Positions 12,044 through 35,531 of a stretch of 64,000 nt of DNA are shown one piece after another; positions within the stretch are counted from its first letter, which is position 1; each line of letters starts with the position of its first letter. Position numbers and translations under genes: made by a program. Where the stretch lies: contig CP084166.1 of assembly GCA_021513695.1 (NCBI GenBank), forward strand, positions 416,001 through 480,000. Reading direction: 5' to 3'. Under the pieces are notes generated by a model that was not told the DNA's origin, ran no database searches, and saw only the letters and a program-made list of their open reading frames with translations. The DNA comes from Candidatus Heimdallarchaeum aukensis. Lineage in GTDB: Archaea > Asgardarchaeota > Heimdallarchaeia > Heimdallarchaeales > Heimdallarchaeaceae.

Positions 12044-12529
12044 TTGTTTTCCATGTCTTACCAAACTTTTGCTGAGAAGTGCGAACCTGCTGTTCCAAAG
12101 TATGTACATTACATTATTGCAGGTCTTGCATGGTTAGGAGTAGGAATAATGTTATCTAATTTTGCTATTCAATGGTTAATCGTTGCAGAGGTACCTCTTG
12201 TTTGGATTTATGGTTTAATTGGAACAATTGCTGGTTTTATCATCTACTACTTTGGTTTTTCGCATATTGCCAAAAAGAATGTTAAAAGAATAGTTGAAAA
12301 AAGGCATAAATTCTGTGTTTTTGCTTTTATTTCTTGGAAATCATACTTGACAATACTTGTTATGGTTGCAATGGGGATAGGATTGAGATTGTCTCCTATA
12401 CCTAAACACTATCTAGCCGTCTTATACATTGGTTTAGGAATAGGTTTAGGTCTGTCTAGTTTTGTTTATTTTGGAAAAACTATTCTTCATTTCAGAAATA
12501 ACCAACCAGATCAAATAACAAACAATTAG
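12044..12529 (+). CDS. Hypothetical membrane protein
   Basis: 161 aa with a TTG start and four predicted TM helices. No recognised motif. Confidence 0.4.
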   Translation: MFSMSYQTFAEKCEPAVPKYVHYIIAGLAWLGVGIMLSNFAIQWLIVAEVPLVWIYGLIGTIAGFIIYYFGFSHIAKKNVKRIVEKRHKFCVFAFISWKSYLTILVMVAMGIGLRLSPIPKHYLAVLYIGLGIGLGLSSFVYFGKTILHFRNNQPDQITNN

Positions 12530-13422
12530 TTTTTTTCTCTTTTATCATTAGTTCTTTCTGAATATGGGGTATAGAATTCTCCCAATTTAATCTTGCTCAG
12601 GTTCCACTCTATTATTTCTTGCAATTGTTTGTTTATTTCGTATCCTATATAATGTCTATAAGCTCCTTTACACACCACTGCTGTTGTACCGTTTCCCATA
12701 AAAGGGTCTAGAATTATATCTCCAGGTTTGCTTCCAAAATCTATACATCTTAAAACAACATCTGTTGGAAGTTTTGTTGCATTCTTTTTTATTCCCGTGT
12801 GATATACTCTTTTTATATTCCAAACATCTTCTGGGTAGTGTTCAATTTTATTAAAAAAATAGTTTCTTTTGTTTTTTACAGCAAAAAGAATATGATAATG
12901 ACTTGTAACAAATTTTCTTTTTGTAAAAACTCCAAATTGATATTTCCAAATTATGTGATTAATTAACTCCAAATTGTTTTTTTCCAGAGCAAATAGTATA
13001 TCTTTTAAATTTGTCCACCCACTGAAAATCCACACTCCTCCACTTTTTTTTAATATTCTCGGCAGTTCACTTATCCATCTATTTGTAAATTCAGAGTAAT
13101 TACTAATTTCTACCTCTTTGTAACCCTCAATTACATTATTTTTGTCTCTATTGTATATACCTTCTTTTCCGTTAAAATTTATTCCAAAGGGAGGATCAGC
13201 AACAACCATGTCAATGCTATTATCAGGAAGTTTTCGCATACCTTCAATGCAATCTTCATAATGGATAATATCAATATCAAAATTACATTTAGAACTCTCA
13301 TAAAGAGCTCTAGCTTCTGAAATAGTCCAATCATAAGTGGGTTTAAACTTTTTAGAGCTTTTTTTAGTGCTATGCTTATTTTTTCCTTTTTTGGTTGTTT
13401 GAGATTCCATAGATTTCTTCAT
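12526..13422 (-). CDS. Beta-class N6-adenine/N4-cytosine DNA methyltransferase (orphan)
   Basis: 298 aa. The catalytic motif IV DPPF (VVADPPFGINF) precedes the SAM-binding motif I (DPFMGNGTTAVV) near the C-terminus, which is the circular permutation typical of beta-class MTases. No restriction endonuclease candidate is adjacent. Confidence 0.8.
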   Translation of the reverse strand: MKKSMESQTTKKGKNKHSTKKSSKKFKPTYDWTISEARALYESSKCNFDIDIIHYEDCIEGMRKLPDNSIDMVVADPPFGINFNGKEGIYNRDKNNVIEGYKEVEISNYSEFTNRWISELPRILKKSGGVWIFSGWTNLKDILFALEKNNLELINHIIWKYQFGVFTKRKFVTSHYHILFAVKNKRNYFFNKIEHYPEDVWNIKRVYHTGIKKNATKLPTDVVLRCIDFGSKPGDIILDPFMGNGTTAVVCKGAYRHYIGYEINKQLQEIIEWNLSKIKLGEFYTPYSERTNDKREKN

Positions 13423-15394: not shown

Positions 15395-18067
15395 TTAATA
15401 TTTCTTTCCACAGATATCAATTTCTTCAAAAGTTTCCTTAACTTTATTTTTCTTTTGTTTTGTTCTGAAGATAATTTCAAATAAAACAATTGAAAAAATG
15501 AAAATCATCCAAACTATACTTTTACTGATAATTTCTTTTCTTCTAGTAATACCTATGTTTGAATTAGGATCTAATGGGTCAAAATCATTCATTACTTCTT
15601 CATAATCAGTATATGAATCTCCATCTGTATCAGGATCGTTGGGATCAGTATTATAAAATTTTACTTCTTCAAAATCGTCCAATCCATCAAAGTCACTATC
15701 TATGCGTAAAGGATTAGTATGGTAAATAAATAATTCTTCATAATCATCTAGTAAGTCACCATCTGTATCACGATTTAGGGGACTAGTATTGTAATTATTT
15801 ACTTCTTCTCCGTCTTTTAATCCATCATTATCAGAATCACTATCATTGGGGTCAGTATCGTACATGTAAATTTCAAGATTATCAGACAAACCATCCAAAT
15901 CTGAATCTTTTAATGTAGGATTTGTTCCATAAACAAATACTTCTACTCCATCATCTATTCCATCATTATCTGAATCATCATTTGTAGGATCTGTTCCATA
16001 AGCGTATATTTCATCACCATCTAATAATCCATCAAAGTCAGTATCATTATTCCTTGGATCAGTATTGTTTTCAAATTCGTGAATATTATATAATTCATCA
16101 TTATCAAAGTCAACATAGGCATCAATTGGATTAGCAACATCTAAACCATAGTAATATTCCCAGTAATTTGTCATTCCATCGCTGTCTAAATCTCCATCAG
16201 CATCGCTTGGATCATCAGGATCTAATCCTACACTAACTTCCCAGTAATCAGGCATTTTATCGTTATCACTATCTCTTACTAGTTTTATGATAAAAGCATC
16301 AATATATCCTTCCAAAGTGGAATTTAAAGGGCTTTTTAAAAGAAGATCATTACTCTCTGTACTCCCTACTATGTAGATAGAACCATCACTATCCACTGCT
16401 ATATCTCTACCTACATCTTCTTCTCTTCCACCAAAATATGTGCTAAAAACTAAATTTGTTCCACTTCTGTTTAACATAGAAACAAAAATATCGGAATAAT
16501 AAGTAGGATTTCTTTCTTCAATTGCATTTTTAATCGGAAAATCATTGCTCCATGTTCCACCTGTTAAATAGACGTTTTGATCATTATCTACCGTTATTGA
16601 CAAACAAGTATCATTTGATGAACCACCTAAAAATGTACTATAGATTATATTATCAGCTGTTGAACTTATTTTTGTTAAAAATATGTTAGAATATCCATTT
16701 AGTGTGTCATCAAAGGCATTTTTTGTTGGAAAGTCAGTACTATTTGTAACACCAGTGATATATACATAACCTTCACTATCAATAGTTATTCCTCTGGCAT
16801 AATCATTATACTTTCCCCCTAAATAAGTGCTAAAGATTAACCCATTTCCTGTAGAGTTAATATAGGATAAATAAACATCAAAAAAGCTTCCACCACCATA
16901 AGTAGAATTAAAAGCATTTACAGTCGGAAAATCATCACTTCTTGTAGATCCAGTAATGAAAATAGAACCATTAGAGAAAACTTTACCTTTAGCAAAGTAT
17001 TCAGCATCACTTCCCCCTATTATTGTGGTGAAAATAGGTTCAAGAGTTTCTCCATCAAGTTTAGTAACAAAAGCATCATAATCATCATCTGAAATATTTC
17101 CAAAAGCAAAGTTGTTGAATAAAGAAGTGCTCATAGTATCTCCAAAAATGTATATATTTCCATCATTTCCTATTTCTATCTTGCGTCCATAATCAAAAAT
17201 ATCCCCGCTTAAATAAGAACTAAAATCTACTAAATAAGGATCAATAATCAATTTTTTAGCTGTATCATATTGTTCAATATTAAAAATATAACAGTTGTCA
17301 TCAAGAGTAAAATAAGCGGGGATAATTTTTCCTTCTTAAAAAACTTTTAAGTTTCTATCATTAAAAATTCTATATTCTGTATTTCCGATTCTTGAGATTC
17401 CAACTATATTAGTTTCATCTTCTTGTTTTAAGTAAAACTTTGAATCTGATGATAGTTGAACCTTAATAACTGAAGGATCAGCGTTTGGTTCAACAATAAA
17501 TTCGTATTTCAGAAATGAACCTGTAAAATAGTATCTTAAAGATATTCCGGGGTATATATCTTCATATATTATTTCTTGATAACAGCTTATTTGAGTAATT
17601 GCTTTATCTTTGTAAAAAAAGTTAGAATAGTAATTTGCTAATGCTTTTGCCTGTGGTACAACGATATTTGAATCAGGAAAAGAGACATTAATTAAGAAAA
17701 ATTTAGTATTTTCTTCTTTATTCGGTTTAAGATTCTGAATAAAGTAGACCTTAGATTCTCCAAAGTAAACATTTGTTAAAGGAGATTGAGCATAATAAAA
17801 AACTGTCTTGTCAAATATATGCCCTTTATTTTTCATAAAAAAGTATTTAGAATTGTAATCACTGACATAGTTCTCTTCAATTTCGCCGGAAACACTGTAA
17901 AAATTAATTTTTGCTTTATTTTGCTGTTGTGAATATTTTATGCTGTAAGAGCCAACTAAAGTGTTATTTTTGACATAAAATCCAGATAAACTGCTCACAC
18001 TTACAAGAAAGATTAAAAACAAACAAACAATAAATGAAACATTTCCTTTGCTTTGATTTTCATTCAT
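15395..18067 (-). pseudogene. Surface protein gene (signal peptide, N-terminal domain, SBBP-type beta-propeller repeats, TSP3-like Ca-binding repeats, TM anchor) interrupted by one in-frame TAA at 17336-17338
   Basis: The ORFs 17336..18067 and 15395..17251 are in the same frame, as (17335-17251) is 84 nt, or 28 codons. I translated the gap by hand as ...NLKVF*EGKIIPAYFTLDDNCYIFNIEQYDTAKKLIIDPYLV, which is open apart from the single TAA. The downstream part has only a TTG pseudo-start and no signal peptide, while the upstream part carries the signal peptide (VSFIVCLFLIFLVSVSSLSG). SBBP-like repeats are present (YLGGKYNDYARGITIDSEGYVYITGVTNSTDFPTKNAF). So are TSP3-like repeats (DSDNDGIDDGVE, DTDGDLLDDYEE). 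Confidence 0.6.
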
Positions 18068-21211: not shown

Positions 21212-22174
21212 ATGAGCTCTTCAGATTTTGCTGTAGAAACCAATAGGTTAACAAAAGATTATGGATCATTAAGGGCAGTAAATGAAATTGATCTATCTAT
21301 TGAAAAATCAGAAATTTTTGGTTTGCTTGGTCCAAACGGTGCAGGAAAAACTACTACCATCAGGCTTCTTTCTGGAATGCTAACACCTACTTTTGGAAAA
21401 GCTAAAGTTTTAGGTATGGATTCTGTGGAAAAATCCCTCCAAATCAGAGAAAAAACAGGATTACTGACTGAAACCCCTTCGATTTATGACAGATTAACTG
21501 TTAGAGAAAACCTTACTTTCTTTGGTAGAATATATGGAGTTAAAACTGATTCCTTGAGAAAGAACATTGATAAATTGTTGGATATTTTTGATTTAGAGGA
21601 GAAAATAGATACAAAGGCAGGTACCTTATCAAAGGGTATGCGACAGAAAGTAGCAATAGCAAGAACACTTATTCATGATCCTGAACTCATATTTCTTGAT
21701 GAACCTACAGCTTCTCTTGCTCCTGAATCAGCTAAAGTTGTTAGAGATCTAATCCTTAATTTAGCAAAGGAGAGTAAAAAAACTTTCTTTATTGCAACAC
21801 ACAACCTCTATGAAGCTGAAATACTTTGTGATAGAGTAGCAATTATAAACAGAGGAAAAATTCTTGCAGTAGGAAAGCCTAAAGAACTCAAAGAAATGAT
21901 GAAGGGAGAAACATATACGATTATTAAATTCCAAGAATGGAACAAGGAAATAGAAAACTTTCTTGAAGCACATAATTACAAGATAAGTAATCTTGCCAAA
22001 GAAGAAAGAAAAATACACATAAAATTAAAGGACATTGAAAAAGAAACACCAGCTTTAATTAAAAAATTAATTGAGAATAATTACAACATTGTAGAAGTTT
22101 TCCACGAGAGACCTTCTTTAGAAAAGATCTATCTTGAACTAATAGAAAAAGAATCAAATGGAGGATTGAATTAG
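21212..22174 (+). CDS. ABC transporter ATP-binding protein (ABC-2 exporter type)
   Basis: 320 aa. It has Walker A GPNGAGKTTT, the signature LSKGMRQKVAIAR, Walker B IFLDEPTASLAP and the H-loop ATHNL. Its stop abuts the start of the permease gene at 22175. Confidence 0.9.
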   Translation: MSSSDFAVETNRLTKDYGSLRAVNEIDLSIEKSEIFGLLGPNGAGKTTTIRLLSGMLTPTFGKAKVLGMDSVEKSLQIREKTGLLTETPSIYDRLTVRENLTFFGRIYGVKTDSLRKNIDKLLDIFDLEEKIDTKAGTLSKGMRQKVAIARTLIHDPELIFLDEPTASLAPESAKVVRDLILNLAKESKKTFFIATHNLYEAEILCDRVAIINRGKILAVGKPKELKEMMKGETYTIIKFQEWNKEIENFLEAHNYKISNLAKEERKIHIKLKDIEKETPALIKKLIENNYNIVEVFHERPSLEKIYLELIEKESNGGLN

Positions 22175-22990
22175 ATGAGATGGGATAGAATTTGGGCTTT
22201 AGCTAAAAAAGATATTAAAGATTATACTAAATCTAAATATGTTTTCTTTACAATTATCTTCATGCCATTATTTCTTTCTCTTATAATGGCAATATCAGGT
22301 GTTTTACCACTAGTTAGTATTCCTGAAGATGAGGTCGATGAAGATGATTTTGCTTCTATCGATAATATTGTAGCAAATGTGGTAAAAGGCTGGAATGACT
22401 TTAATCCCAAACAGAAAATGCTAATTATTAGTGCTTATGGGATGCTATTCTTTGTTGCTCTCATACCAATAATTATACCGTCAATAATAGCTTCGGAAAC
22501 AATAGTAGGCGAAAAAGAAAGGAAAACAATGGAAGGATTAATTGCGTCTCCTCTCAGCGAAGGAGAGATAGTAGTAGGAAAAATAGTTTCTGCTTTTCTA
22601 CCCTCAATTATAGGAACAATTGTTGCTTCAATTGTTTATGCGGTAAGTGTTGATATTATGCTATATCGTGAGATAGGAAGACTTCTCTTTCCAGATCCTT
22701 TGATTATTTTATTTACATTCGTTATCAGCCCCATAACAACTATCCTTTGCGTAGAACTGATGATAATGATTTCAACAAAGATGTCAAGTGTAAGAGATGC
22801 CTATCAAATTGGTTCGCTTGTAGTTATGCCTGTGTTCTTCTTTGTTTTTCTTCAGATGGTGACCTTCTTCTTTTCAAGTTTATTATCAATACTAGCAGGA
22901 ACTACAATACTTATCCTATCTACAATTTTCTTCTACAAGCTTGCAGAGAATATTTTTGACAGAGAAAAAGCATTGGTAAAATTAGTTTGA
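22175..22990 (+). CDS. ABC-2 type transporter permease
   Basis: 271 aa with 6 predicted TM helices. It is translationally coupled to the ATPase gene (TAGATG junction). Confidence 0.7.
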   Translation: MRWDRIWALAKKDIKDYTKSKYVFFTIIFMPLFLSLIMAISGVLPLVSIPEDEVDEDDFASIDNIVANVVKGWNDFNPKQKMLIISAYGMLFFVALIPIIIPSIIASETIVGEKERKTMEGLIASPLSEGEIVVGKIVSAFLPSIIGTIVASIVYAVSVDIMLYREIGRLLFPDPLIILFTFVISPITTILCVELMIMISTKMSSVRDAYQIGSLVVMPVFFFVFLQMVTFFFSSLLSILAGTTILILSTIFFYKLAENIFDREKALVKLV

Positions 22991-23020
22991 TTTTCTTTTC
23001 TCTTTTTTATTTTTATTTTC

Positions 23021-23063
23021 AGAAAAATTTTTATTAAATATATAAGGATATAATTGAAGGGGT
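23021..23063 (+). promoter_or_regulatory. Conserved promoter/5' leader module of paralog 1
   Basis: An 18-nt box AGAAAAATTTTTATTAAA (BRE/TATA-like) is followed by ..GATATAATTGAAGGGGT and then the TTG start. The same box with the same 43-nt spacing to a TTG start recurs at 25260. Confidence 0.45.
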
Positions 23064-25118
23064 TTGAACAGAGCAAAAAAAATAGTACCTTTAGCTATAA
23101 TATTTGTTCAAATAATTCTTTTTACTAGCTTACAGTATAGTTCCGTCAATGCAGATGAGATTCAGTATAACGTAATTGGAATAAACATCAATTCCGATAG
23201 TGATTTTATTGATTTTGCAAGGACAGGAGCAGGAACTAAAGAAGATCCCTACATAATTTCAGGGTATCACTTTGAGTACTATGAAATTGGGATATTTATT
23301 TCACAAACAAGTAAATATGTCATAATAACTAACTGTTCTTTTTCTAACATCAAATATGAAGCAATAAGATTGTGGTCTGTCAAATCTGGAACAGTAAGAA
23401 TAGAAAACAATACGATTGTTAATGCAAAAGTGGGAATATTCCTATATGAAGCTCCAGATTGTACAATAATAAGTAATAAAATAATGAACTGTTCTGCTTT
23501 TGCAATTAAAGATGATTTTTCTAGAATAGGATCAAAAATTATGAACAATACACTTTATAACAACGAAGAAGGAATAACCATAAGTGAAACTAATTACACT
23601 CAAATACTGAATAATTACATAATTTACAGTAGAAATGTTGGCATTTATTTAATGGATACCACAAATGGAACAGAAATACATCATAACTTCTTCTTAAATG
23701 CTAACAAACCTGCTTTTACAACAGCTTGTAGTTATGGATATTATAATAATTGGACATCAAATTATTGGAGTGATTGGGATGGTTCAAGTCCATATAAAAT
23801 AGAGAGTAAATATGAACAAACTTTTGACACAAATCCTTTAAGTTTCGATGACTCTGATGGAGACAAAATAATCGATATTTTAGAACTTGTTATGGATATG
23901 AATCCAGAATCAACCGACAACGACTCTGATGAAATTTCAGATTATGATGAATTACTTATTTATGCAACAAACCCTAATACAATAGATACAGATGAAGATG
24001 GAATAACAGATTATGATGAAATATTTGTATATTTAACAAATCCGAATACACAAGATACAGATAAAGATGGAATAACAGATTATGATGAAGTATTTGTATA
24101 TCATACAGATCCGAATAAAAAAGACTCAGATGGTGATACCTTTTCAGATTATGAAGAAATATTACAGAAAACCAATCCTAGGAAAAGTTATAGTAATCCA
24201 ATTACAAAAAAATATTTGACAATCTTTCTTCCAATTTTTTCAGGTTTATTTGGTGTTGCATTTCTTTCAACTAGATATTACTCTAACTCAAAGAAAAACA
24301 AAATTAAGGTAATCTTTGACACATGGAATGAATTTTTCAATGAATGGGAAAAAATAATTGAACAGATAAATAAATCAGGAAATTCAGAAATAGAAGAAAT
24401 AATCTTTGAGGTAAATCAGTTAAAAGAAAAAAAAGTAGATGAGCTTGAATTTGTCAAAAAAATAGTAGCTCAATCAAAGAAACTACTTATAGAACATATG
24501 AAATTCAACGTTGAATTAAGTTTACAAAAATACAAAAAGCAAATAGAAATTTTTGTTAACCTACAGAGTAATTTGATTGATAAAGCTTTAATTACCCTTA
24601 ATCAAATAACAGAAAATACAATTCTTAATGCTGTAAAAGATTATTTGTGGATGAGATTCGTTTATTTGTATAGTACTACTAGCAAATCAGAAGCAATTAC
24701 CACTATTGAAGATGTGAGTGGAGATGCACTTTTTAACAAGTTCATTAAATTTTATAGATCTTTAGATTATGAGGAAAGACTGAAAAAAGAAATATCCAAC
24801 TTAGCAGAAGAAGTAAAATTTCAGATAAATCAAGCAAAAAAATATGAAATTGAGCTTATAGAAAGTTCAATAAACTCTATTATTGATTCTCTATTTGATA
24901 AATTTAATAAACTTGAGATCGATATAAATATTCTTCAAGAAAAAATCAAGGATATAAACATCGCTCAGATTAAACTAGATAATCCTTCCGAAACTTTTGT
25001 TAGAATCGAAAATATAGTAAAAGAAGAAGTGAACATACAAATGAAAGATAAAGAAGAGTCTATTCAGTCTAATCTTTTCTCTAATCAAGAAAAAGGGTTA
25101 AAGAATCCGCGTGAATAG
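23064..25118 (+). CDS. Type I membrane protein: right-handed beta-helix (NosD/PbH1-like) ectodomain, TSP3-like Ca-binding repeats, TM, about 290-aa cytoplasmic coiled-coil tail (paralog 1)
   Basis: 684 aa. Signal-like N-terminus. Parallel beta-helix repeats are present (IENNTIVNAKVGIFLY, IISNKIMNCSAFAI, LNNYIIYSRNVGIYL). TSP3-like repeats follow (DTDEDGITDYDE, DTDKDGITDYDE, DSDGDTFSDYEE). The TM segment is LTIFLPIFSGLFGVAFL. The tail is K/E-rich. Confidence 0.7.
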   Translation: MNRAKKIVPLAIIFVQIILFTSLQYSSVNADEIQYNVIGININSDSDFIDFARTGAGTKEDPYIISGYHFEYYEIGIFISQTSKYVIITNCSFSNIKYEAIRLWSVKSGTVRIENNTIVNAKVGIFLYEAPDCTIISNKIMNCSAFAIKDDFSRIGSKIMNNTLYNNEEGITISETNYTQILNNYIIYSRNVGIYLMDTTNGTEIHHNFFLNANKPAFTTACSYGYYNNWTSNYWSDWDGSSPYKIESKYEQTFDTNPLSFDDSDGDKIIDILELVMDMNPESTDNDSDEISDYDELLIYATNPNTIDTDEDGITDYDEIFVYLTNPNTQDTDKDGITDYDEVFVYHTDPNKKDSDGDTFSDYEEILQKTNPRKSYSNPITKKYLTIFLPIFSGLFGVAFLSTRYYSNSKKNKIKVIFDTWNEFFNEWEKIIEQINKSGNSEIEEIIFEVNQLKEKKVDELEFVKKIVAQSKKLLIEHMKFNVELSLQKYKKQIEIFVNLQSNLIDKALITLNQITENTILNAVKDYLWMRFVYLYSTTSKSEAITTIEDVSGDALFNKFIKFYRSLDYEERLKKEISNLAEEVKFQINQAKKYEIELIESSINSIIDSLFDKFNKLEIDINILQEKIKDINIAQIKLDNPSETFVRIENIVKEEVNIQMKDKEESIQSNLFSNQEKGLKNPRE

Positions 25119-25259
25119 CTTTATTTCTCTTTTATAGTTGATACTTTTATTACAATGAACTTACTCACAATCTCTCTCCAAAAATATGAAATATAATCTT
25201 TCTTCCTAATGAATCAAACATTATTTATAATCTAATTTCACTTTTCTTTTTTCAATTTT

Positions 25260-25302
25260 AGAAAAATTTTTATTAAAGGTACAAAGATATGATTGAAGGG
25301 GT
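25260..25302 (+). promoter_or_regulatory. Conserved promoter/5' leader module of paralog 2
   Basis: It has the same AGAAAAATTTTTATTAAA box, the same ..GATATGATTGAAGGGGT leader and a TTG start at the same spacing as at 23021. Confidence 0.45.
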
Positions 25303-27288
25303 TTGAAAATAAAAAAGTCAAAATCTAATCTGTTAGTTTTGTTTTTAATATTGTTCTTTACTAGTTCTACCTATTTTCATATAAAAGCAGATGATAATAC
25401 AAAATCAGGTTTTGCAATTCAAATCTCTTCTAACGATGAATTTTCTTTATTTTCAAAAGCAGGTAACGGAACTAAAGAAAATCCCTATGTTATCTCAGGA
25501 TATATCATTGAACACTTCGAAGCAGGTATTTTTATATCTCAAACAACCAAATTTTTCGTTATTACTAATTGTACTTTTCTTAATCTAAAATATGAAGCCA
25601 TACGAATAATGACAGTAGATGTTGGTAATGTTAGAATAGAAAATAATACGATTATTAATACAAAGTTTGGAATTTATATATATCAAGCTCCAAAAAGTAT
25701 TATTGTAAATAACAAAATCGTTAATTGCACTGTATCAGGAATAAGAGACGAATTTTCAGGAATAGGTTCTAAAATTGAAAACAACACTCTTTACAACAAT
25801 GAAGAAGCTATTACAATTTATTCAACAAATTATACTCAAATATTAAATAATTATATAATCAAAAGTCGGAAAGCTGGCATATTTCTATTGTGGAAACCAA
25901 ATGGAACAGAAATACATTATAACTTTATTCTAAACTCAGTAAAACCTTATATTGCAACTGCTCACAACGAAGGATTCAATAATAATTGGACATCAAATTA
26001 TTGGAATGACTGGAATGGAACAGGAGATTATCAAATAAGTAGCATTTATGAAACAACATTTGATAAAAATCCTTTGAGTTTTAATGACACTGATGGAGAT
26101 AAAATAATTGATATTTTGGAACTTGTAATGAATACAGATCCTTATGTGGTAGATAGCGACAATGACGGAATTGATGACTATAATGAATTGCTTAATTATG
26201 CAACAAACCCTAATGCCCAAGACAGTGATGGAGATGGAATATCTGATTATGACGAAATAATTGTATATACAACAAATCCCAATGCACAAGACACTGATGG
26301 AGATGGAATAACAGATTATGATGAAGTATTTGTTTATGGAACTGATGCAAAGAAACGAGATACTGATGGCGATACTTTTTCTGATTATGAAGAAATATTA
26401 ATGAAAACTAACCCTAAAAAAAGTTACAGTAATCCTATTATTAGAAGATATCTAACCATCTTAATTCCTACTTTTTCAGGAGTACTTGTTATTGCAGCTT
26501 TTTCAACTAGATACTATACCAACTCAAGGAGAAACAAAATTAAGGTGATTTTTGAAACATGGAATGAATTTTTCACTGAGTGGGAGAAAATAATTGAGCA
26601 GATAAACAATACAAAAAATTCAGAAGTTGAAGAAATAATATTTGAGGTAAAGGAACTTAAAAATAAGAAAATTGACGAACTTGAGCTTGTAAAGAAAATA
26701 ATCAGTCAAGCTAAAAAATTACTTATCAATCATATGAAGTTCAATGTTGAATTAAGCTTACAAAGATATAAAAAGCAAGCTGAAATTGTAATTAATCTAC
26801 AGAATAACTTAATTAGCCAAGCATTAACTGCTCTTAATCAAATAACAAAGAATACAATACTAAACGCTGTAAAAGATTACTTGTGGATGAGATTTGTTTA
26901 TCTATATAGCACAACAGAAAAATCTGAAGCCATAACTACTATTGAAGATATAAGTGGAGACACTCTTTTTAACAAGTTTGTCAAATTTTACAAATCATTA
27001 GATTATGAAGAGAGATTGAAAGAAGAAGTTGCTCATTTGGCAGAAGAAATCAAATATCAAATAAGAAAAGCCAAAGATTATGAAATTGATCTTTTAGAGA
27101 GTTCAATAAATTCAATTATAGACTCTTTACTTGATAAGTTTAACAAGCTTGAAGTTGATATTAATTTTCTTGAAGAAAAAATAAAAGACATTAGTGTTGA
27201 ACAGTCCAAGATCGATAATCCAAAAGATGCCTTCTTAAAAATAGAAAAAATAGTTAAAGAAGAAGTGAAAGAACAAAAAAGCAATTAA
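25303..27288 (+). CDS. Type I membrane protein: beta-helix ectodomain, TSP3-like repeats, TM, cytoplasmic coiled-coil tail (paralog 2)
   Basis: 661 aa and collinear with the 684-aa neighbour. Long identical stretches include DKIIDILELVM, NAVKDYLWMRFVYLYSTT and SINSIIDSL. Confidence 0.7.
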   Translation: MKIKKSKSNLLVLFLILFFTSSTYFHIKADDNTKSGFAIQISSNDEFSLFSKAGNGTKENPYVISGYIIEHFEAGIFISQTTKFFVITNCTFLNLKYEAIRIMTVDVGNVRIENNTIINTKFGIYIYQAPKSIIVNNKIVNCTVSGIRDEFSGIGSKIENNTLYNNEEAITIYSTNYTQILNNYIIKSRKAGIFLLWKPNGTEIHYNFILNSVKPYIATAHNEGFNNNWTSNYWNDWNGTGDYQISSIYETTFDKNPLSFNDTDGDKIIDILELVMNTDPYVVDSDNDGIDDYNELLNYATNPNAQDSDGDGISDYDEIIVYTTNPNAQDTDGDGITDYDEVFVYGTDAKKRDTDGDTFSDYEEILMKTNPKKSYSNPIIRRYLTILIPTFSGVLVIAAFSTRYYTNSRRNKIKVIFETWNEFFTEWEKIIEQINNTKNSEVEEIIFEVKELKNKKIDELELVKKIISQAKKLLINHMKFNVELSLQRYKKQAEIVINLQNNLISQALTALNQITKNTILNAVKDYLWMRFVYLYSTTEKSEAITTIEDISGDTLFNKFVKFYKSLDYEERLKEEVAHLAEEIKYQIRKAKDYEIDLLESSINSIIDSLLDKFNKLEVDINFLEEKIKDISVEQSKIDNPKDAFLKIEKIVKEEVKEQKSN

Positions 27289-27295
27289 AAAGTTT

Positions 27296-28411
27296 CTAAT
27301 GTATCCTTAGATTAGGTGGAATAAGGTTTAGAACTCCACAGGCTGGACATTCTATTACTCCATTTTCGTTCATGTCTTTTAGATCTAAGAGTTCTCCACA
27401 ATTCCCTGCACAATACATGGGAATTAATTCTGGTCCTTCCTTTACTCCTTCAATTGCACTATTAATCTTTGGAATAACTTCTTTGTAGAGCCTTTCGTGT
27501 ATTTGATCCACTTCATAACCGTAGACCCATATAGCTATATTTCCACTTTTTTCTTTTCCTGTGATTATAAGTTCAACTATAGAAATATCTTTTTTTCCGA
27601 TTTGGGAGACAAACATCAGGTTTCCAATGAAATTTTCACTTGTATCCATTACTATCTGTTCGTTCACTGTTTTATAAGAATCAAATAAGGTTTTTAAAAC
27701 TTTAAAAGCGACTTTTGGCTTTGCATGGAATTCTATTGATCTTCCTAATGAATCGAGCTTGTTGTTCTTTAATTCCATTAAAGCTTCATAATAACCATTT
27801 TCTATTCTTTCTTTAAGTATTAAAGCTCGTTCCTCTCTTTTTTTGTAAGCTTCATAGATTAGTTCTGTAAATTCAGCTTGTTTTTTCTTAACTATTGTAA
27901 ATTTCGTTCCTTCATGTATCTTTACAGGGGGAAAAGGCAAGCTACCTATTATTTGAGACTGAACAATATATGGTTCTCTTAAAGTTGAAGGAACAATAAA
28001 GCTTAACGAAGTACCGTAATCGATTATTTTTCCAATGTTTCCCTCTCTTACTATTGAACTCCAATCTCCTCCAGGAATTGTAACTGTATCTGGAACAGCC
28101 AAAAACACAACATCTGCTCTCGGGGGAGCAGAAGATATTAAAGCTGTTACTTCTTCTCCATCACCTATTTCTCCTGCAATTCTTTTGTCCAAGTATATTA
28201 AAGGATTTTTTCCTTTTTTTACTATCTCATTGATTTCAGCAAAAACTGAACTAGTCCTTCCAATTGTAGAAGAAAAGAGAAGAGCATATTTTTCATCATC
28301 TGCAAGTTCTAATTCAGTATCTTCTGGTAAAACTATACCTATACCGTTTCTAAAAACTAGTTTAACTTTACATGTAACCGTTTTCACATTCCTCTCTAAG
28401 AAAATCCTCAC
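27296..28411 (-). CDS. CDC48 N-domain-like (double-psi barrel plus beta-clam) protein with a C-terminal zinc ribbon and no ATPase domain (tentative)
   Basis: 371 aa with a GTG start. The segment IYLDKRIAGEIGDGEEVTALISSAPPRADVVFLAVP...VKIHEGTKFTIVK resembles the substrate/adaptor-binding N-domain of CDC48/VAT. The C-terminus has CAGNCGE...CPACG, i.e. two CxxC pairs. Confidence 0.35.
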   Translation of the reverse strand: MRIFLERNVKTVTCKVKLVFRNGIGIVLPEDTELELADDEKYALLFSSTIGRTSSVFAEINEIVKKGKNPLIYLDKRIAGEIGDGEEVTALISSAPPRADVVFLAVPDTVTIPGGDWSSIVREGNIGKIIDYGTSLSFIVPSTLREPYIVQSQIIGSLPFPPVKIHEGTKFTIVKKKQAEFTELIYEAYKKREERALILKERIENGYYEALMELKNNKLDSLGRSIEFHAKPKVAFKVLKTLFDSYKTVNEQIVMDTSENFIGNLMFVSQIGKKDISIVELIITGKEKSGNIAIWVYGYEVDQIHERLYKEVIPKINSAIEGVKEGPELIPMYCAGNCGELLDLKDMNENGVIECPACGVLNLIPPNLRIH

Positions 28412-28752: not shown

Positions 28753-29529
28753 TTAATTTTGTTCAAATTCTATTCTAATCTCATATGCAGTTTTTGAAGT
28801 CCAAATAGTTGGTGTGATGAAAAATTCTGCAACTATTTCTTCTTTATCTGGATCAAAATATACATTTCTTTCAGACGGGACAATATAACCAATTCCATTT
28901 GTAAAATAAGCTCTTACAGTCATTGAACCTTGATTAAGTCCATTTAGTTTTACTGTTGCTTCAGTTAATTTTTTACCCAATTTTTCTGTTGTCAAACTAT
29001 AAAGTCTAGCTTCTTCAGAACTAACTCTAGAGCAAGTAATTTCTAACTCATCCAGAGCATAACCAGTTTTTTTGATAAAAATAACTAATTTAAAGACTTC
29101 ATTAATACAAAAATTATATGGTACTTTTATCATTAAATTTCTACTATAGGTCTTTTCTTCTTTATCAACAGAGAGTGAAAGAGATTCTGTTTCTTCTGCT
29201 TCTTCGATCATTTCCAATTCAGGAGATTCAATTAATTTCTCATCAAGTGTCATAGGAGCAAAAGGAATAGGAGAGCGTACAGATTTTGGAAGTTCAGTTT
29301 CTTCTTCTGATGACATTGTTTTTACTGAAGAAGGAATAGAACGTCTTCTTTTTTTCTTACTTTTCTTATCTTTTCTAGATAATCTCATTTTATCCGTTAT
29401 TAGATCCTTTACATTTGAAGTGAAAATTTTCTCTTTTTGAAAATCTATCTTCTTAGAACTGAAAACAATAACAAATGTTACTAAGCTACTAACTAGAAAA
29501 ATTATTCCTAAAATAAAAGATGTTGACAT
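28753..29529 (-). CDS. Hypothetical N-terminally anchored protein
   Basis: 258 aa. It has an N-terminal TM (FILGIIFLVSSLVTFVIVF), a basic stretch KDKKSKKKRRRS, and a beta-rich C-terminal domain. Confidence 0.45.
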   Translation of the reverse strand: MSTSFILGIIFLVSSLVTFVIVFSSKKIDFQKEKIFTSNVKDLITDKMRLSRKDKKSKKKRRRSIPSSVKTMSSEEETELPKSVRSPIPFAPMTLDEKLIESPELEMIEEAEETESLSLSVDKEEKTYSRNLMIKVPYNFCINEVFKLVIFIKKTGYALDELEITCSRVSSEEARLYSLTTEKLGKKLTEATVKLNGLNQGSMTVRAYFTNGIGYIVPSERNVYFDPDKEEIVAEFFITPTIWTSKTAYEIRIEFEQN

Positions 29530-30829: not shown

Positions 30830-31693
30830 GTGAAAGATATGAATGATAAAAAAAGATACTTAAGGTTAAAGAATTTAAAAGAATTTGGAGTAGATATTAC
30901 TTGGGAAAATCTTTTTTCAAAAACCGTTTTATTTGCAGGAGTAGGTGGAGTAGGAAGTATTGCTGCTGAAATGTTTGCTCGATGTGGAATAGGAAAAATG
31001 ATTTTGATAGACTTAGATATTGTAGAAGAAGTAAATTTAAACAGACTATTTTATACTCAGGAAAATATAGGAAAGCCAAAAGTAGAAGTAGCAAAAGAAA
31101 TTTTAACAAAAATTAATAGAGACGTGGAAATTGAAACATATCATTCTGATATCTGTGCAATCGATTTTGAAGAAAAATTTGAACAATTGATAAAAGAATC
31201 AGATTTAGTTATTTCTAGTTTAGACAATATACCTGCAAGATTATATATTAATGAAAAATGCGTTCAACTAAGAAAAGAGTATATCGATTCAGGAGCAAGC
31301 AGATCAGGTTTAGGAGGATATGTTCATTTAGTTATTCCATTTAAAACTGCTTGCTATCAATGTACAGGTTCAATAGATTTAGGAGAAAAAAAGCATGGAG
31401 AACCATGTACTGCTTCTTTACCTTCTACAATAGCTATTATAGCTTCACTCACAGTGGAAATTGCACTTAAACATTTGTTAAATTTTGGAGTGATTCCTGA
31501 TTATATCGGTTTTAACGCTTTGACCGACCAGTATATAATACAAAAGATGAATAGAGATCCTTCATGTTATATATGTGGAGAAAGAAAAACGAATCTAAAA
31601 GAGCAGAGGAAATCTTTGCAAGAAATTGATGAATTAACGGAAGGAAAAACTGTAGATGAGTTAATTCAAAATTTGGATTCTCATGAGAAGTAG
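30830..31693 (+). CDS. UBA5-like (UFM1-activating type) E1 adenylation enzyme
   Basis: 287 aa with a GTG start at 30830; an alternative ATG is at 30839. It has the nucleotide loop [38 protein letters not shown] matches remembered human UBA5 [30 protein letters not shown]. The CxxC pairs ACYQC and SCYIC match the UBA5 zinc site. [11 protein letters not shown] (Cys193) matches the UBA5 catalytic-Cys context [18 protein letters not shown] matches UBA5 LKFLLNFG. Confidence 0.85.
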   Translation: [287 protein letters not shown]

Positions 31694-31706
31694 AACTAAT
31701 TAAAAA

Positions 31707-32765
31707 GTGGTAAGAATGGTTAAAGTTCAAATTTCTAAACATATCTTAAAAGCAATAGAGAAACACGCTATTGAATTTAAAGGAAAAGAAATCTATGGTT
31801 GGTTGTTAGGATACGATAATGGTTCAAATTTGAAAGTTATTGCAAGTGTTCCTTGTAAAATGTACAAAATTCAAAATGAAGTAAGAGCAGAACCATCAAC
31901 AGAAGAAGCTTTTGAAATTGTAAAGAACATTCCTAAAGGAATAGGAATCATAGGTATTTATCATAGTCATCCAAATAAGGTTTATCACAGCGTAACTGAT
32001 GATTTGACAGTAAAACAATATGCTAATGTATATCCTCATTTCTTAAGTATTGTAACAAACGGAAAGGAAACAAAATCATTTCAATTAATAGATAACGATG
32101 TTAAACCAATTGATGTAGGTGAGTTAAAAGAAGAAACTTTAAAGACTCTTACTTTTAAGATACCTTTGAAATATTATTATCCTGAAAATGAGGAATTAAC
32201 GCTAGCTTTCATTTCATCAGAAATAAGAGAATTCTTGGAAAAAGAGTCACAAAACCTAAAACTAATAGCTAATGACAGAGAAATTAAAGATGATGAGAAG
32301 ATAGATTCTTTGACAAAAACAACCATTGAAGTAAAGTTAGAAAGTGCTGAAATTAATTTCAATGAAAAGAAAAAGTATATTTTCTTTAATTTTCATTTTG
32401 ATATGGTTTCTCCACCCAAGAAAACTGTTTCAGATTTAAAACCTCTCTTATTCAATGGCATTAAAGATTCTATGTATTATTACATTAAAAATATAAAATT
32501 AAACAATTCTTTTGAACTACCTTACGAATTTAAATTTGAAATTTCTAATATTCCTTGGAGGTTTAATGTCAAAAAAGACACATGGGATCTAATTCAGTTT
32601 CTTGACATTTTTGCATTTCGAATAAAGTACATGTCATTTAAAAATGAGAAGAAGAGGAACAAAATTCATTCAGAGATAATTAAAATTAAAGAAATTTTAG
32701 AAAAAGACAAATCAGCTTTTGGAAAAATTGATTCGTTATTGGAGGGACTAACGAAAAAGATTTAA
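31707..32765 (+). CDS. JAMM/MPN+ metallopeptidase with a long uncharacterised C-terminal extension
   Basis: 352 aa with a GTG start at 31707; an in-frame ATG is at 31716. The first ~130 aa carry the JAMM motif elements: Glu in KEIYGWLLG, then HSHPNKVYHSVTD (His86, His88, Ser95, Asp98). By my count the His-to-Ser spacer is 6 residues rather than the canonical 7. The remaining ~220 aa have no recognisable motif. Confidence 0.75.
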   Translation: MVRMVKVQISKHILKAIEKHAIEFKGKEIYGWLLGYDNGSNLKVIASVPCKMYKIQNEVRAEPSTEEAFEIVKNIPKGIGIIGIYHSHPNKVYHSVTDDLTVKQYANVYPHFLSIVTNGKETKSFQLIDNDVKPIDVGELKEETLKTLTFKIPLKYYYPENEELTLAFISSEIREFLEKESQNLKLIANDREIKDDEKIDSLTKTTIEVKLESAEINFNEKKKYIFFNFHFDMVSPPKKTVSDLKPLLFNGIKDSMYYYIKNIKLNNSFELPYEFKFEISNIPWRFNVKKDTWDLIQFLDIFAFRIKYMSFKNEKKRNKIHSEIIKIKEILEKDKSAFGKIDSLLEGLTKKI

Positions 32766-32804
32766 AAAGAAAAAAGCTAGAAGAAGAACAATGGGGACAA
32801 AAAA

Positions 32805-33068
32805 ATGGAGTCTTTAAAGAGATTATATTTTACAACAATAGTAGGAACAGAACATAAACAAATACCATTTGAAACACCAGGAAGTATAGTTTTCCACGAA
32901 TTAATTGTAGAAGTTTCAAAAAAGTTTGGAATAGCTACTGAACAAATTGCGATAAGCAGTGAAATGGGAGAAACTCTAACAGTTTCAGATTTTCAATCCA
33001 CTGTGGACGAAATAATAAGAAAGTATGGAACAGCTTTTCAAGTTATTAATCGAGGAGTAGTAGGATAA
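32805..33068 (+). CDS. UFM1-like beta-grasp ubiquitin-like modifier ending in Val-Gly
   Basis: 87 aa. The C-terminus KYGTAFQVINRGVVG-stop parallels remembered mature human UFM1 KHGSELRIIPRDRVG. The middle segment EVSKKFGIATEQIAISSEMG parallels UFM1 FAAEEFKVPAATSAIITNDG. It sits between the JAMM and E2 genes. Confidence 0.7.
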   Translation: MESLKRLYFTTIVGTEHKQIPFETPGSIVFHELIVEVSKKFGIATEQIAISSEMGETLTVSDFQSTVDEIIRKYGTAFQVINRGVVG

Positions 33069-33079
33069 AGATTTTAGAG

Positions 33080-33661
33080 ATGGGGGTTCCAAAGATTAGC
33101 GACAGCGATACTTCAACAGTAAAAGGAAGATGGAGAGAAACACCTGCAGAAAGAGAACTAGTTAAGTTTCCAGAAGCTCTGATAAATATAACTCCAAAGC
33201 ATCCTAAATGGACAGAAAGAGTGAAAATAGAAATTTTAAATCTAGCAAAATATGTTCAGTTTTTACAAAGAAAAGGCGGGCATAGCTGGTTCTTTCTTAC
33301 ACCTAGTAAAGATCCTAAGTACAACTTTATGAAATGGGAAGGATATTTGCAAGTGGCTACAAGACCAGAAATTAGGTTTAAAATAGTAATTCTTTTACCT
33401 GGAAACTATCCAAAATCTTGCCCTAGGGCTTTCATTGAAGAAAGAGTAGTAGAATTTGCAGGAAAGATTTATACCAAAAATGTCTGGGAAGAGCCAAATG
33501 GAGAAAAATATTTGATGATATGTCATGACCACATGAGTGAAATTGACGATATTTGGGATCCAAGGTTAACAATTGCACACTTTTTCATAAGAGAAGTATT
33601 CTATTGGTGGGCAGCTCAACAGAACCTAATAATTGAACATTACGACAAAGGAAAGAAATAG
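33080..33661 (+). CDS. UFC1-like E2 conjugating enzyme
   Basis: 193 aa starting 11 nt after the Ubl stop. KWTERVKIEILNLAKYVQF parallels UFC1 LWVQRLKEEYQSLIRYVEN. LPGNYPKSCP parallels IPITYPTTAP. FAGKIY parallels KTAKMY. LMICHDHMSEIDDIW (Cys148) parallels the UFC1 active site KICLTDHFKPLW. LTIAHF parallels GLAHL. There is no canonical E2 HPN motif, as in UFC1. Confidence 0.7.
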   Translation: MGVPKISDSDTSTVKGRWRETPAERELVKFPEALINITPKHPKWTERVKIEILNLAKYVQFLQRKGGHSWFFLTPSKDPKYNFMKWEGYLQVATRPEIRFKIVILLPGNYPKSCPRAFIEERVVEFAGKIYTKNVWEEPNGEKYLMICHDHMSEIDDIWDPRLTIAHFFIREVFYWWAAQQNLIIEHYDKGKK

Positions 33662-33836
33662 ATTATTTTTAAGCTATTTTTACTTTTTAAATTTAGAAGT
33701 TTATTTTTATTAAATGGTGTTTACTTGAAAAGCAGAAGCAGAAATAAGAAAGAAGTTATGAGACTAAATAAATCAATGTAAAAAAACTGTTAAATTTAAA
33801 CAAAAAATTTAACTATTTTATCGTTTATATAATTTT

Positions 33837-34874
33837 TTGATGAGTAACAATTTAATATTGAATTTTTTAAATTTTCCACCAAATGTTGATTCTTTTACAG
33901 ATTATGAAAGTAAAATTCATAACGAAATTGAAAATCAATTCAATGATACACGTTCATTACTTCTTGTAATCATGAAGAGTTTGGATGTGGAAGACAAAAA
34001 ACGTTTTTTCAAAATTAAGAAATTTCTTGACAAATTAATTAGTGAGTTCAATTCCTTAAAAACTAGAATTTTTTCATTTGAGACAATTGAAGGAAAATTA
34101 TCTTTCAATCATGAAGTTGTTTTAATTTTAGATTTCTTAATTTTTGAACGTTTATTAGACTTCAATACTACTTTAAGAAATATAGAATCGATAGTTCTAC
34201 ATACTTTGGATAAAGATTACATTCAAGCTCAATCTTTTCAACTTCACAAATCTCTACAAAAACTAGAAAATTTAATTAATTTCCGTAAAGTAGCACATCA
34301 ACTTACTCCATCTGATCAATTGTTTCTGCAATTCTCAGAAGATTTCAGTGCTCAACTCTCTTATCTTGAATCAGTAGGCGTAATTCACCAGTTTGATGAA
34401 CTAAGTAAACCTTCTTTATTGGGAAAGAAAGCATATTATGACAAACTTTCTCAATTGTTTATCTCAACTTGCAATTCTCTACAAAAACAAAATAGATTAA
34501 ACATACCTTTTCTTGAATTTGTAGATGTTTTTCAAAAGAGATATCCAAATGTTGAGTTTGCTGTAGAAGATTTGGACAAAATTGCTTCAAGACTTTCAAA
34601 GACTGGGATGATTTCTGTAGTTACTAATACAGAGCAATCAAAGAAAATTATTATTGGCGAAGACATTGCTTTACAGCAAGAAATACTCAAATTAGCCAAA
34701 GGAAAAGGATACATTACACAAGAAGAATTGATTAGTTCTTTAGGTAAAAGTATAACGGAGATACAATTAACTATCAAGAAACTTGAAGATGCAGGACTAG
34801 CTATCGAAGACGATGACTATGCTTCAGGAAAGAGGATCTATTTTCCAGGTTTAGAAACAGAAATAAAAAGTTAG
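33837..34874 (+). CDS. Tandem winged-helix protein, EAP30 (Vps22/Vps36, ESCRT-II)-like, with DDRGK-type WH as an alternative
   Basis: 345 aa; the likely ATG is at 33840. The C-terminus ISVVTNTEQSKKIIIGEDIALQQEILKLAKGKGYITQEELISSLGKSITEIQLTIKKLEDAGLAIEDDDYASGKRIYFPGL aligns by eye with remembered human SNF8/Vps22 ...LIQSVPAELNMDHTVVLQLAEKNGYVTVSEIKASLKWETERARQVLEHLLKEGLAWLDLQAPGEAHYWLPAL. It also resembles the DDRGK1 WH (LEDLA...LLAEGTITGVIDDRGKFIYIT). A helical N-terminal half precedes it. Confidence 0.5.
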   Translation: MMSNNLILNFLNFPPNVDSFTDYESKIHNEIENQFNDTRSLLLVIMKSLDVEDKKRFFKIKKFLDKLISEFNSLKTRIFSFETIEGKLSFNHEVVLILDFLIFERLLDFNTTLRNIESIVLHTLDKDYIQAQSFQLHKSLQKLENLINFRKVAHQLTPSDQLFLQFSEDFSAQLSYLESVGVIHQFDELSKPSLLGKKAYYDKLSQLFISTCNSLQKQNRLNIPFLEFVDVFQKRYPNVEFAVEDLDKIASRLSKTGMISVVTNTEQSKKIIIGEDIALQQEILKLAKGKGYITQEELISSLGKSITEIQLTIKKLEDAGLAIEDDDYASGKRIYFPGLETEIKS

Positions 34875-34883
34875 GGTGAAAAA

Positions 34884-35531
34884 ATGTCATATATTGTAAA
34901 ATTGGGATTAGATGAAAAACAAGAAAATAATGTAACTAAAAGTGAACTTTCAGATGAACTTGTTGCATGGGTTTTTCCCTACGCTTTAGAAAAATGGGAA
35001 AAAATTAATTTAAAGAAAAGAAGGCAAATTTTGGTTAAACTCAATGAAAAAGCTCTCGTTTATAACAAAGAAAACTTCATTCAAGAGCTTTCAAGTGGCT
35101 TATACAAAGTTAATAGAAAAGAAGGTCTTGAAGATCACAAAATTGTTTTCTTAGAAAAAAACCTTATTACTCTTAAATGGGGCATCACTCAAATGCAAGG
35201 AGTTTTAACAAGTGACAATATAAAAGTTGGAGCTTCTGGAACAGTTTCTCTAACTTTATCAGGTGCAGAAGTATTTGTTTTAAACGTTCTGAAAAATAAA
35301 ACAAGTTTTTCAAAGAAAGAACTCCGCCCCATAATAAATAATATCGTCAAAAGTGCATTAAGAGAAGTTTTTCCACAGTATTCTATTGAAGAATTACAAA
35401 AATTAAGTAAAGACGAATTACTTATGTTCTTTGAACCAATAATTGTAGAAGAATTGCAAAAAATAGGTTTTAGTAGCCAAGATATATCATTGGGTGCATT
35501 GGGAATTCCTCCGGAGTATAGGATTTTCTAA
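34884..35531 (+). CDS. SPFH/Band-7-like (YdjI-type) domain protein (tentative)
   Basis: 215 aa starting 9 nt after the previous stop. ITLKWGITQ...ASGTVSLTLSG...FSKKELRPIINNIVKSALREVF...GFSSQDISLGALGIPPE follows the pattern I recall for the Band_7_1 family (e.g. B. subtilis YdjI: FTVRWGTKQ...ANGTFKFKV...GFQIMSFNYPQE). Confidence 0.35.
   Translation: MSYIVKLGLDEKQENNVTKSELSDELVAWVFPYALEKWEKINLKKRRQILVKLNEKALVYNKENFIQELSSGLYKVNRKEGLEDHKIVFLEKNLITLKWGITQMQGVLTSDNIKVGASGTVSLTLSGAEVFVLNVLKNKTSFSKKELRPIINNIVKSALREVFPQYSIEELQKLSKDELLMFFEPIIVEELQKIGFSSQDISLGALGIPPEYRIF

Follow-up and report, generated by a model that had tools for sequence, protein, structure and literature searches.

Two adjacent genes in a 64,000-nt stretch of the genome of Candidatus Heimdallarchaeum aukensis (contig CP084166.1, positions 416,001 to 480,000; hereafter the window, numbered from its first base) encode what, judging from their sequences, are type-I single-pass surface glycoproteins with a short right-handed beta-helix of the CASH/NosD type, a stalk of TSP3 repeats and a long cytoplasmic tail. 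The strongest purifying selection of any domain falls on this tail. The ectodomain is of a kind already known. What is new here is a membrane-anchored beta-helix/TSP3 surface protein that bears an orphan cytoplasmic domain. With a probability of about 0.45, the two genes, g1 and g2, encode a surface receptor or anchor, in which a variable beta-helix head on a calcium-binding stalk would engage an external ligand, and the constrained tail would oligomerise and bind a conserved partner.

The cytoplasmic tail

The tail is 279 amino acids (aa) long in g1 and 257 aa in g2, and hence shorter than the approximately 290 aa given in an earlier interpretation of the DNA letters (the sequence-only reading). 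The same reading had called the tail the best conserved part of the two proteins, which holds for the selection acting on it but not for its identity. The ratio of nonsynonymous to synonymous substitution rates (dN/dS) between g1 and g2 is 0.08 in the tail and 0.20 in both the beta-helix and the TSP3 repeats, all computed on a background of saturated synonymous sites (dS of about 1.2–1.7), and it falls to 0.03 in the central 40 tail codons (NAVKDYLWMRFVYLYSTT...). In terms of identity, the tail (76%) merely ties with the TSP3 repeats (75%).

An exhaustive HMMER profile search with the tail against 1.84 billion representative proteins returned three clusters only, all of them 653–695 aa long and with the same full architecture. 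P0004 is the g2 orthologue of the metagenome contig L001. P0005 (666 aa, E 1e-47), from a Heimdallarchaeaceae metagenome-assembled genome, is 38% identical overall to g2, and P0006 (695 aa, E 9e-15), from an uncultured archaeon, is 30% identical. Despite this 30–38% overall identity, W21 and the motifs IIE, IIFE, LQ..L..AL and KD(Y/F)LW are invariant in the tails. As the tail profile finds P0005 and P0006 and nothing else in 1.84 billion proteins, the match is no effect of composition, and the tail is a real, narrowly distributed domain rather than a compositional coiled coil. The sequence-only reading had named a low-complexity tail, conserved in this pair alone, as the result that would count against it. 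The two distant matches and the lowest dN/dS of any domain are contrary to such a result. On the sequences found, the family seems to be confined to Heimdallarchaeaceae plus a single uncultured archaeon of unclassified position.

It was the exhaustive search that brought P0005 and P0006 to light; searches of word-indexed proteins, for which either the tail or its profile served as the query, gave, among the matches listed, near-identical fragments only. A metagenome scan with the tail profile gave no match, the same scan with P0005 gave unrelated TSP3 proteins only, and a scan of viral contigs gave no match. The tail has no match in Pfam even at E 10 and no credible match among the PDB sequences. 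A match to DAD3 (E 6e-4, 22 bits) was rejected because it consisted of helical segments matching each other.

From the six-sequence alignment, AlphaFold2 produced a tail model with a predicted local distance difference test score (pLDDT) of 68 and a predicted TM-score (pTM) of 0.39, whereas the single-sequence model of full-length g2 was uninformative (pLDDT 35). The predicted fold consists of a membrane-proximal strand-helix-strand followed by helices 49–131, 146–221 and 234–254. The tail had been described as a coiled coil. It is indeed predicted to be helical, yet the 3.5-residue hydrophobic periodicity of its long helices (49–131 and 146–221) does not rise above that of shuffles, in a crude test that register shifts could mask, and the periodicity is present only in the short helix 14–29.

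The ectodomain and membrane topology

Both proteins match the Pfam families Beta_helix (PF13229) and NosD (PF05048) at aa ~58–240. The scores are 56.1 and 61.3 bits in g1 and 60.9 and 50.3 bits in g2, in each case above the gathering cut-offs of 25.9 and 23.6 bits. TSP3_bac (PF18884), for which the cut-off is 25 bits, scores 37 and 52 bits, and five DxDxDGxxDxxE repeats with a 69-nt period can be read in each protein. In the hydropathy profile, one signal-like segment is present at the N-terminus and one membrane helix at aa ~383–403, the latter with a basic stretch on its tail side. There are 8–10 N-X-S/T sequons in the ectodomain and one in the tail, although the tail is equally rich in Asn (8–9%); this distribution fits a glycosylated extracellular head and a cytoplasmic tail. 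The shared plan put forward in the sequence-only reading, namely a signal, a parallel beta-helix, TSP3-like repeats and one membrane helix, is thus borne out by Pfam and hydropathy.

The right-handed beta-helix fold would also suit a tethered polysaccharide-modifying enzyme of the pectate lyase or C5-epimerase type. The best PDB sequence matches are AlgG mannuronan C5-epimerases (E 0.003), and UniRef names a member of the g1 cluster 'Probable pectate lyase C'. However, the AlgG matches are marginal (20 bits) and run over generic helix turns. Moreover, the AlgG stretch 'giaphdrshg', which we take to be catalytic, aligns to 'aIRIMTVDVG', so that the His/Asp-containing stretch is not retained, and no lyase or epimerase family in Pfam or NCBIfam exceeds any threshold. 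An enzymatic role is therefore very improbable.

The ectodomain evolves fast, with 38–40% identity across lineages versus 66–72% for the adjoining genes. A sequon-rich and fast-evolving ectodomain would likewise be expected of a passive envelope or adhesin component, that is, of one of many anchored coat glycoproteins whose tail only stabilises insertion or lateral packing. The window encodes at least five TSP3-stalk surface proteins, and the strong promoter-like box described below would suit an abundant structural protein. It is the tail that is difficult to reconcile with such a role. Paralogues that are only anchored have tails of 10–25 aa, whereas a tail of ~260 aa with a dN/dS of 0.08 and with motifs that are invariant in distant members implies a specific cytoplasmic function. 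We consider a purely passive role to be somewhat unlikely.

Two other TSP3-anchored surface proteins of the window are a 989-aa multi-beta-helix protein (45536–48505, plus strand) and a 618-aa SBBP beta-propeller protein (15395–17251, minus strand). Both have a TSP3 stalk, a C-terminal membrane helix and a short basic tail.

Genes, start codons and public records

The two adjacent open reading frames (ORFs) of 684 and 661 aa, both with a TTG start, are as the sequence-only reading had them, according to the ORF coordinates and the alignment (Table 1). Public annotation likewise gives lengths of 684 and 661 aa. Their pairwise alignment runs over 639 aa without a gap, at 69% identity and 83% similarity. 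An in-frame TGA (23055–23057) lies 9 nt 5' of the g1 TTG, and there is no ATG, GTG or further TTG before the hydrophobic core of the signal peptide. The TTG is hence the sole start that gives g1 a full signal peptide. Since this peptide is expected to be cleaved, N-terminal proteomics would fail to verify the TTG start.

The public protein UJG41195.1 of Ca. Heimdallarchaeum aukensis has exactly the sequence of g2, and g1 shares a 90%-identity cluster with UJG41194.1 (684 aa) of the same 3.08-Mb genome. Existing annotation describes both as generic beta-helix proteins, and in our literature search the family was found described nowhere.

Table 1. Features of the g1/g2 locus, in window coordinates
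Feature	Coordinates	Strand	Description
ABC ATPase	21212-22174	+	Directly 5' of the permease; NCBIfam DrrA-type
ABC-2 permease	22175-22990	+	Adjoins g1 upstream; Pfam ABC2_membrane_2/ABC2_membrane (PF12679-type)
T-rich tract	22991-23020	+	Separates the permease stop codon from box 1; may act as oligo-T terminator for the unit before it; belongs to the duplicated module
Box 1	23021-23038	+	AGAAAAATTTTTATTAAA; putative BRE (AGAAAAA) and TATA element (TTTTTATTAAA) of g1
g1 leader	23047-23063	+	GATATAATTGAAGGGGT; conserved
g1 coding sequence	23064-25118	+	684 aa, TTG start
g1 signal peptide		+	aa 1-30
g1 beta-helix	23238-23783	+	aa ~59-240
g1 TSP3 repeats	23844-24188	+	Five repeats, aa ~261-375
g1 membrane helix	24210-24272	+	aa ~383-403
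g1 cytoplasmic tail	24279-25115	+	aa 406-684
Box 2	25260-25277	+	Exact copy of box 1, before g2
g2 leader	25286-25302	+	GATATGATTGAAGGGGT; conserved
g2 coding sequence	25303-27288	+	661 aa, TTG start
g2 signal peptide		+	aa 1-29
g2 beta-helix	25474-26019	+	aa ~58-239
g2 TSP3 repeats	26080-26424	+	Five repeats, aa ~260-374
g2 membrane helix	26446-26508	+	aa ~382-402
g2 cytoplasmic tail	26515-27285	+	aa 405-661
371-aa protein	27296-28411	-	C-terminal CxxC...CxxC zinc ribbon; convergent with g2

Tandem duplication

The similarity between g1 and g2 extends ~85 nt 5' of the start codon (77% identity over 100 nt) and includes the T-rich tract, the box and the leader. Identity is 18/18 in the box and 40/46 from the box to the start codon, which, compared with the saturated dS, points to selection on the upstream sequence. 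On contig L001 the ABC transporter is likewise followed by g1 and g2, and then by a 363-aa gene in convergent orientation. Both g1 and g2 have a box there (one of the two with a single mismatch), the 43-nt spacing and the TTG. Over the greater part of g1 and g2, this contig agrees at 99–100% identity with Ca. H. endolithica PR6, from which it differs in part of the TSP3 region. Because L001 keeps both genes with their control regions, the duplication is older than the split of the H. aukensis and H. endolithica lineages, and the saturated dS fits an old event. The proposal that the gene and its control region were duplicated together is thus supported both by the ~85 nt of shared upstream sequence and by the two boxes kept in L001, and g1 and g2 probably stem from an old tandem duplication.

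Two arrangements in the H. endolithica lineage depart from this pattern. The closed PR6 genome (CP084167.1, L003 8780–10768) has a single chimeric gene, in which the g1 promoter and ectodomain, to about nt 1100, are followed by the g2 tail; this chimera may be due either to unequal crossover between the tandem paralogues or to assembly collapse. L001 (1904–5917) has both genes, with a 97-nt deletion and a frameshift in the TSP3 region of g1. The g2-type tail is retained in all H. endolithica-lineage cases, i.e. in the PR6 fusion and next to the disrupted g1 of L001. The divergence between g2 of the window and g2 of L001 is a mosaic, with a dS of 0.065 in the beta-helix (25474–26019) versus 0.38 in the tail and 0.55 in the TSP3 repeats, and some 100-nt stretches are 100% identical. 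Such a pattern suggests recent recombination of the ectodomain or gene conversion between lineages.

A putative promoter and a very short predicted leader

Exact copies of the 18-mer AGAAAAATTTTTATTAAA are present at two sites of the 64 kb only, 23021 and 25260. With up to three mismatches there are 10 sites versus 4.3 expected, a number reached by 0 of 100 shuffles. The box looks like a near-consensus archaeal promoter with a purine-rich B recognition element (BRE, AGAAAAA) and, beside it, an A/T-rich TATA element; this putative assignment is based on its resemblance to the BRE/TATA consensus and on its spacing. Box 1 is among the best window matches to a loose BRE/TATA pattern set 28–60 nt 5' of starts. 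It is identical in L001 g1 and in PR6, and the L001 g2 box carries one mismatch (AGAAAAATTTTTATTGAA). Behind each box come GATAT(A/G)ATTGAAGGGGT and the TTG, which is exactly 43 nt from the first box base in both genes. Direct reading of both upstream regions hence confirms the identical 18-nt box, the near-identical leader and the 43-nt distance that had been noted before. Elements similar to BRE/TATA also lie ~30–45 nt 5' of other starts in the window, namely 56112 (AGAAAAAATTTATAAAA), 62244 on the minus strand (AAAAAAAATTTTATAAAA), 40437 on the minus strand and 36546, and both P0005 and P0006 have TATA-like boxes ~30 nt 5' of their ATG.

Archaeal RNA polymerase terminates at oligo-T, and for this reason the T-rich tract before box 1 is read as a putative terminator. 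The tract is partly conserved before g2 and in L001. In H. endolithica, the T-rich tract before the g1 box (L003 8690–8740, L001 ~1830–1860) is a tandem repeat of ttttcatttttatt in three copies, and the window holds a single degenerate copy of this repeat.

Archaeal TATA boxes are usually centred ~26 nt 5' of the transcription start. With this spacing, the predicted start of the g1 transcript is at ~23056–23061 and its leader would be 2–8 nt long. The purine-rich GAAGGGGT abuts the start codon of g1 and g2 (23056–23063 and 25295–25302) and recurs as GAAGAGGT-ATG, GAAGAGGA-ATG and AAAGGAGA-TTG at three other genes. It is too near the start codon for a classical Shine-Dalgarno sequence and may be a remnant of one, or else an initiator or short-leader signal. 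ATTGAAG is also kept before P0005. The distant homologues start with ATG, and the TTG is specific to the Heimdallarchaeum pair. No Rfam family matched the leader region, and a literature search found no Asgard transcription start data. Within the window, a motif of this kind, GAAG(A/G)GG(T/A) or AAAGGAGA, stands 0–1 nt from the start codon at 12526–13422 (minus strand), 42440 (plus strand) and 48571–49467 (minus strand).

Gene neighbourhood

The ATP-binding cassette (ABC) ATPase and the permease are found directly upstream of the family gene in three of the four lineages (the window, L001/L003 and L007; not in L004), and they are 68–72% identical to their L007 counterparts. This gene order would be expected if g1 and g2 were accessory proteins of an ABC-2 transporter, like NosD in NosDFY. 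The beta-helix would then dock on the permease, ATP hydrolysis would drive extracellular work, and the tail might touch the ATPase. The Pfam NosD matches, with E values of 1e-16 and 3e-13 over nearly the whole model, agree with such a role. However, the NCBIfam equivalog model of NosD (TIGR04247), which has a cut-off of 300 bits, scores only 33.6 and 29.9 bits, and the beta-helix is only ~180 aa long. The permease has no NosY-specific match in NCBIfam. Neither NosZ nor NosL was matched among the ~37 window ORFs scanned with Pfam, a set that leaves out about ten ORFs of at least 120 aa (mainly at 39.5–45.5 kb, with a few near 48.6, 51.3 and 62.5 kb). Furthermore, g1 has its own promoter-like box behind the T-rich tract, and P0006, the most distant member, is without ABC genes in its 10.9-kb contig. 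Finally, the neighbours of the window share 66–72% identity with those of L007, so that simple inheritance may account for the common gene order. Taken together, a transporter accessory is an unlikely identity for these proteins.

Orthologues of the 371-aa zinc-ribbon protein that converges with g2 are found near the family gene in L001, L003 and L007 (66% identical in L007). Beyond it, as seen from g2, lies the gene of a 258-aa protein with a membrane helix (28753–29529, minus strand). Searches for these two downstream proteins gave no family or PDB match, and the PADLOC anti-phage models matched neither of them nor g1 and g2.

Farther away, 3.5 kb 3' of g2, the plus strand at 30830–35531 encodes a ThiF-type E1, a JAB/MPN deubiquitinase, a UFC1-like E2, an EAP30/Vps36 (ESCRT-II) protein and an SPFH/Band 7 protein, a cluster that we take to resemble the Asgard ubiquitin-ESCRT locus. 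At 2656–8445 (minus strand), a 1929-aa ORF carries the set of UvrA interaction and DNA-binding domains twice, along with several ABC/P-loop modules, and is in effect a giant, doubled UvrA-like protein.

Proposed function and its significance

If g1 and g2 encode a surface receptor or anchor, each gene would be its own transcription unit with a very short leader, beginning ~2–8 nt before the TTG and preceded by a T-rich terminator-like tract before each box, and the 18-nt box would be kept by selection as a promoter. The fast-evolving ectodomain, carried on a TSP3 stalk stiffened by calcium, would bind an external ligand, most likely a glycan or the surface of another cell. The slowly evolving tail would oligomerise and hold a conserved cytoplasmic partner, and this link would couple the surface protein to the cell interior by way of anchoring, clustering or signalling. 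The two proteins would be partly redundant, a reading to which the PR6 chimera and the 97-nt deletion in L001 g1 lend support.

Most Heimdall beta-helix/TSP3 paralogues end just after the membrane helix, and anchoring alone is hence insufficient to explain a 260-aa tail. Outside-in signalling or cytoskeletal coupling, as suggested in the sequence-only reading, is plausible. A more far-reaching version of this idea is that the tail is a novel cytoplasmic coupling domain that links, in the archaea nearest to eukaryotes, a calcium-dependent adhesion ectodomain to a cytoskeletal, membrane-remodelling or ubiquitin/ESCRT partner, the E1/JAB/E2/ESCRT-II cluster being 3.5 kb away. Together with the FG-GAP protein with a winged-helix tail described below, it would then represent integrin-like receptors that act both ways in Heimdallarchaeum. 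We regard this version as speculative and improbable.

Several observations weigh against a receptor or anchor. In both sequence and fold searches, no homology was detected between the tail and signalling, cytoskeletal or adaptor domains of any kind, and the model of its structure, made from six sequences, is of moderate confidence only. The conserved adjoining ABC-2 transporter offers another functional context. As to expression, a TTG on a nearly leaderless archaeal mRNA is expected to initiate poorly, and GAAGGGGT could be a Shine-Dalgarno-like element with an unusual spacing, in which case the leader model is incomplete.

The way in which the Asgard cell surface is built and linked to the cell interior bears on models of the origin of the eukaryotic cell. 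An orphan tail under tighter constraint than its ectodomain is a concrete bait for intracellular partners. In addition, the putative promoter is conserved in four copies, at both genes of each of two species and with a single mismatch in one copy, on which promoter architecture, short leaders and non-AUG initiation can be cleanly tested in an Asgard archaeon. If the tail serves as an anchor and nothing more, what was duplicated here is an ordinary gene for a surface protein.

Comparison with known systems

The repeats of the stalk, D-x-D-x-D-G-x-x-D-x-x-E with a period of ~23 residues, are the same as those of bacterial TSP3 proteins (PF18884, e.g. OmpA-like proteins) and of the type-3 repeats of thrombospondin. 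In g1 and g2 they serve as the stalk that joins the beta-helix head to the membrane anchor of an archaeal protein, and the other domains are unrelated to those of the bacterial proteins and thrombospondin.

NosD of the NosDFY system resembles g1 and g2 in its NosD-type beta-helix and its ABC ATPase and ABC-2 permease neighbours. However, g1 and g2 are far below the equivalog cut-off and their helix is shorter. To our knowledge, NosD has no TSP3 repeats, membrane helix or cytoplasmic domain.

Methyl-accepting chemotaxis proteins (MCPs), in which a membrane helix likewise connects a sensor outside the cell with a long antiparallel helical hairpin in the cytoplasm, are topological analogues only. 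The top Foldseek matches of the tail model are MCP/HAMP-Tsr structures, but they are not significant (E 0.12 or worse, TM 0.23–0.29), and the Pfam family MCPsignal (PF00015) has no match in the tail. Moreover, MCPs have two membrane helices, whereas g1 and g2 have one pass and a signal peptide that is probably cleaved, and no heptad periodicity above shuffles in the long helices of the tail.

A second type of cytoplasmic tail is present in the window. The 1482-aa protein encoded at 57796–62244 (minus strand) combines a beta-propeller of the FG-GAP type, which is integrin-alpha-like, with a long TSP3 array, a membrane helix and ~130 aa of cytoplasmic tail, and this tail ends in a winged-helix-like module and ...SQYRDWEIIGEGKKKE (W-E-x-x-G-x-G-K-K-K type). 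The promoter-like box of its gene resembles that of g1 and g2. The beta-helix proteins P0056 and P0040 carry this C-terminal module too (hhalign E 1.3e-5). Homology of the g1/g2 tail to the tails of P0056 and P0040 was considered and rejected (hhalign probability 0.1%). The winged-helix tail family resembles g1 and g2 in joining a TSP3-stalk surface protein to a conserved cytoplasmic module. It differs in that its tail has been shuffled onto both FG-GAP and beta-helix ectodomains, while a single architecture accounts for all the g1/g2 tails found.

Close in build to g1 and g2 are other membrane-anchored relatives, the beta-helix and TSP3 proteins of Heimdallarchaeaceae and further Asgard archaea (P0017, P0026, P0092 and the 989-aa protein of the window). 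They share with g1 and g2 the N-terminal cap G-x-G-T-x-x-(D/N)-P-Y, the turns of the beta-helix, the membrane-adjacent TSP3 repeats and the C-terminal membrane helix. These relatives, however, stop 10–25 residues past the membrane helix, where g1 and g2 add an orphan domain of 257–279 aa.

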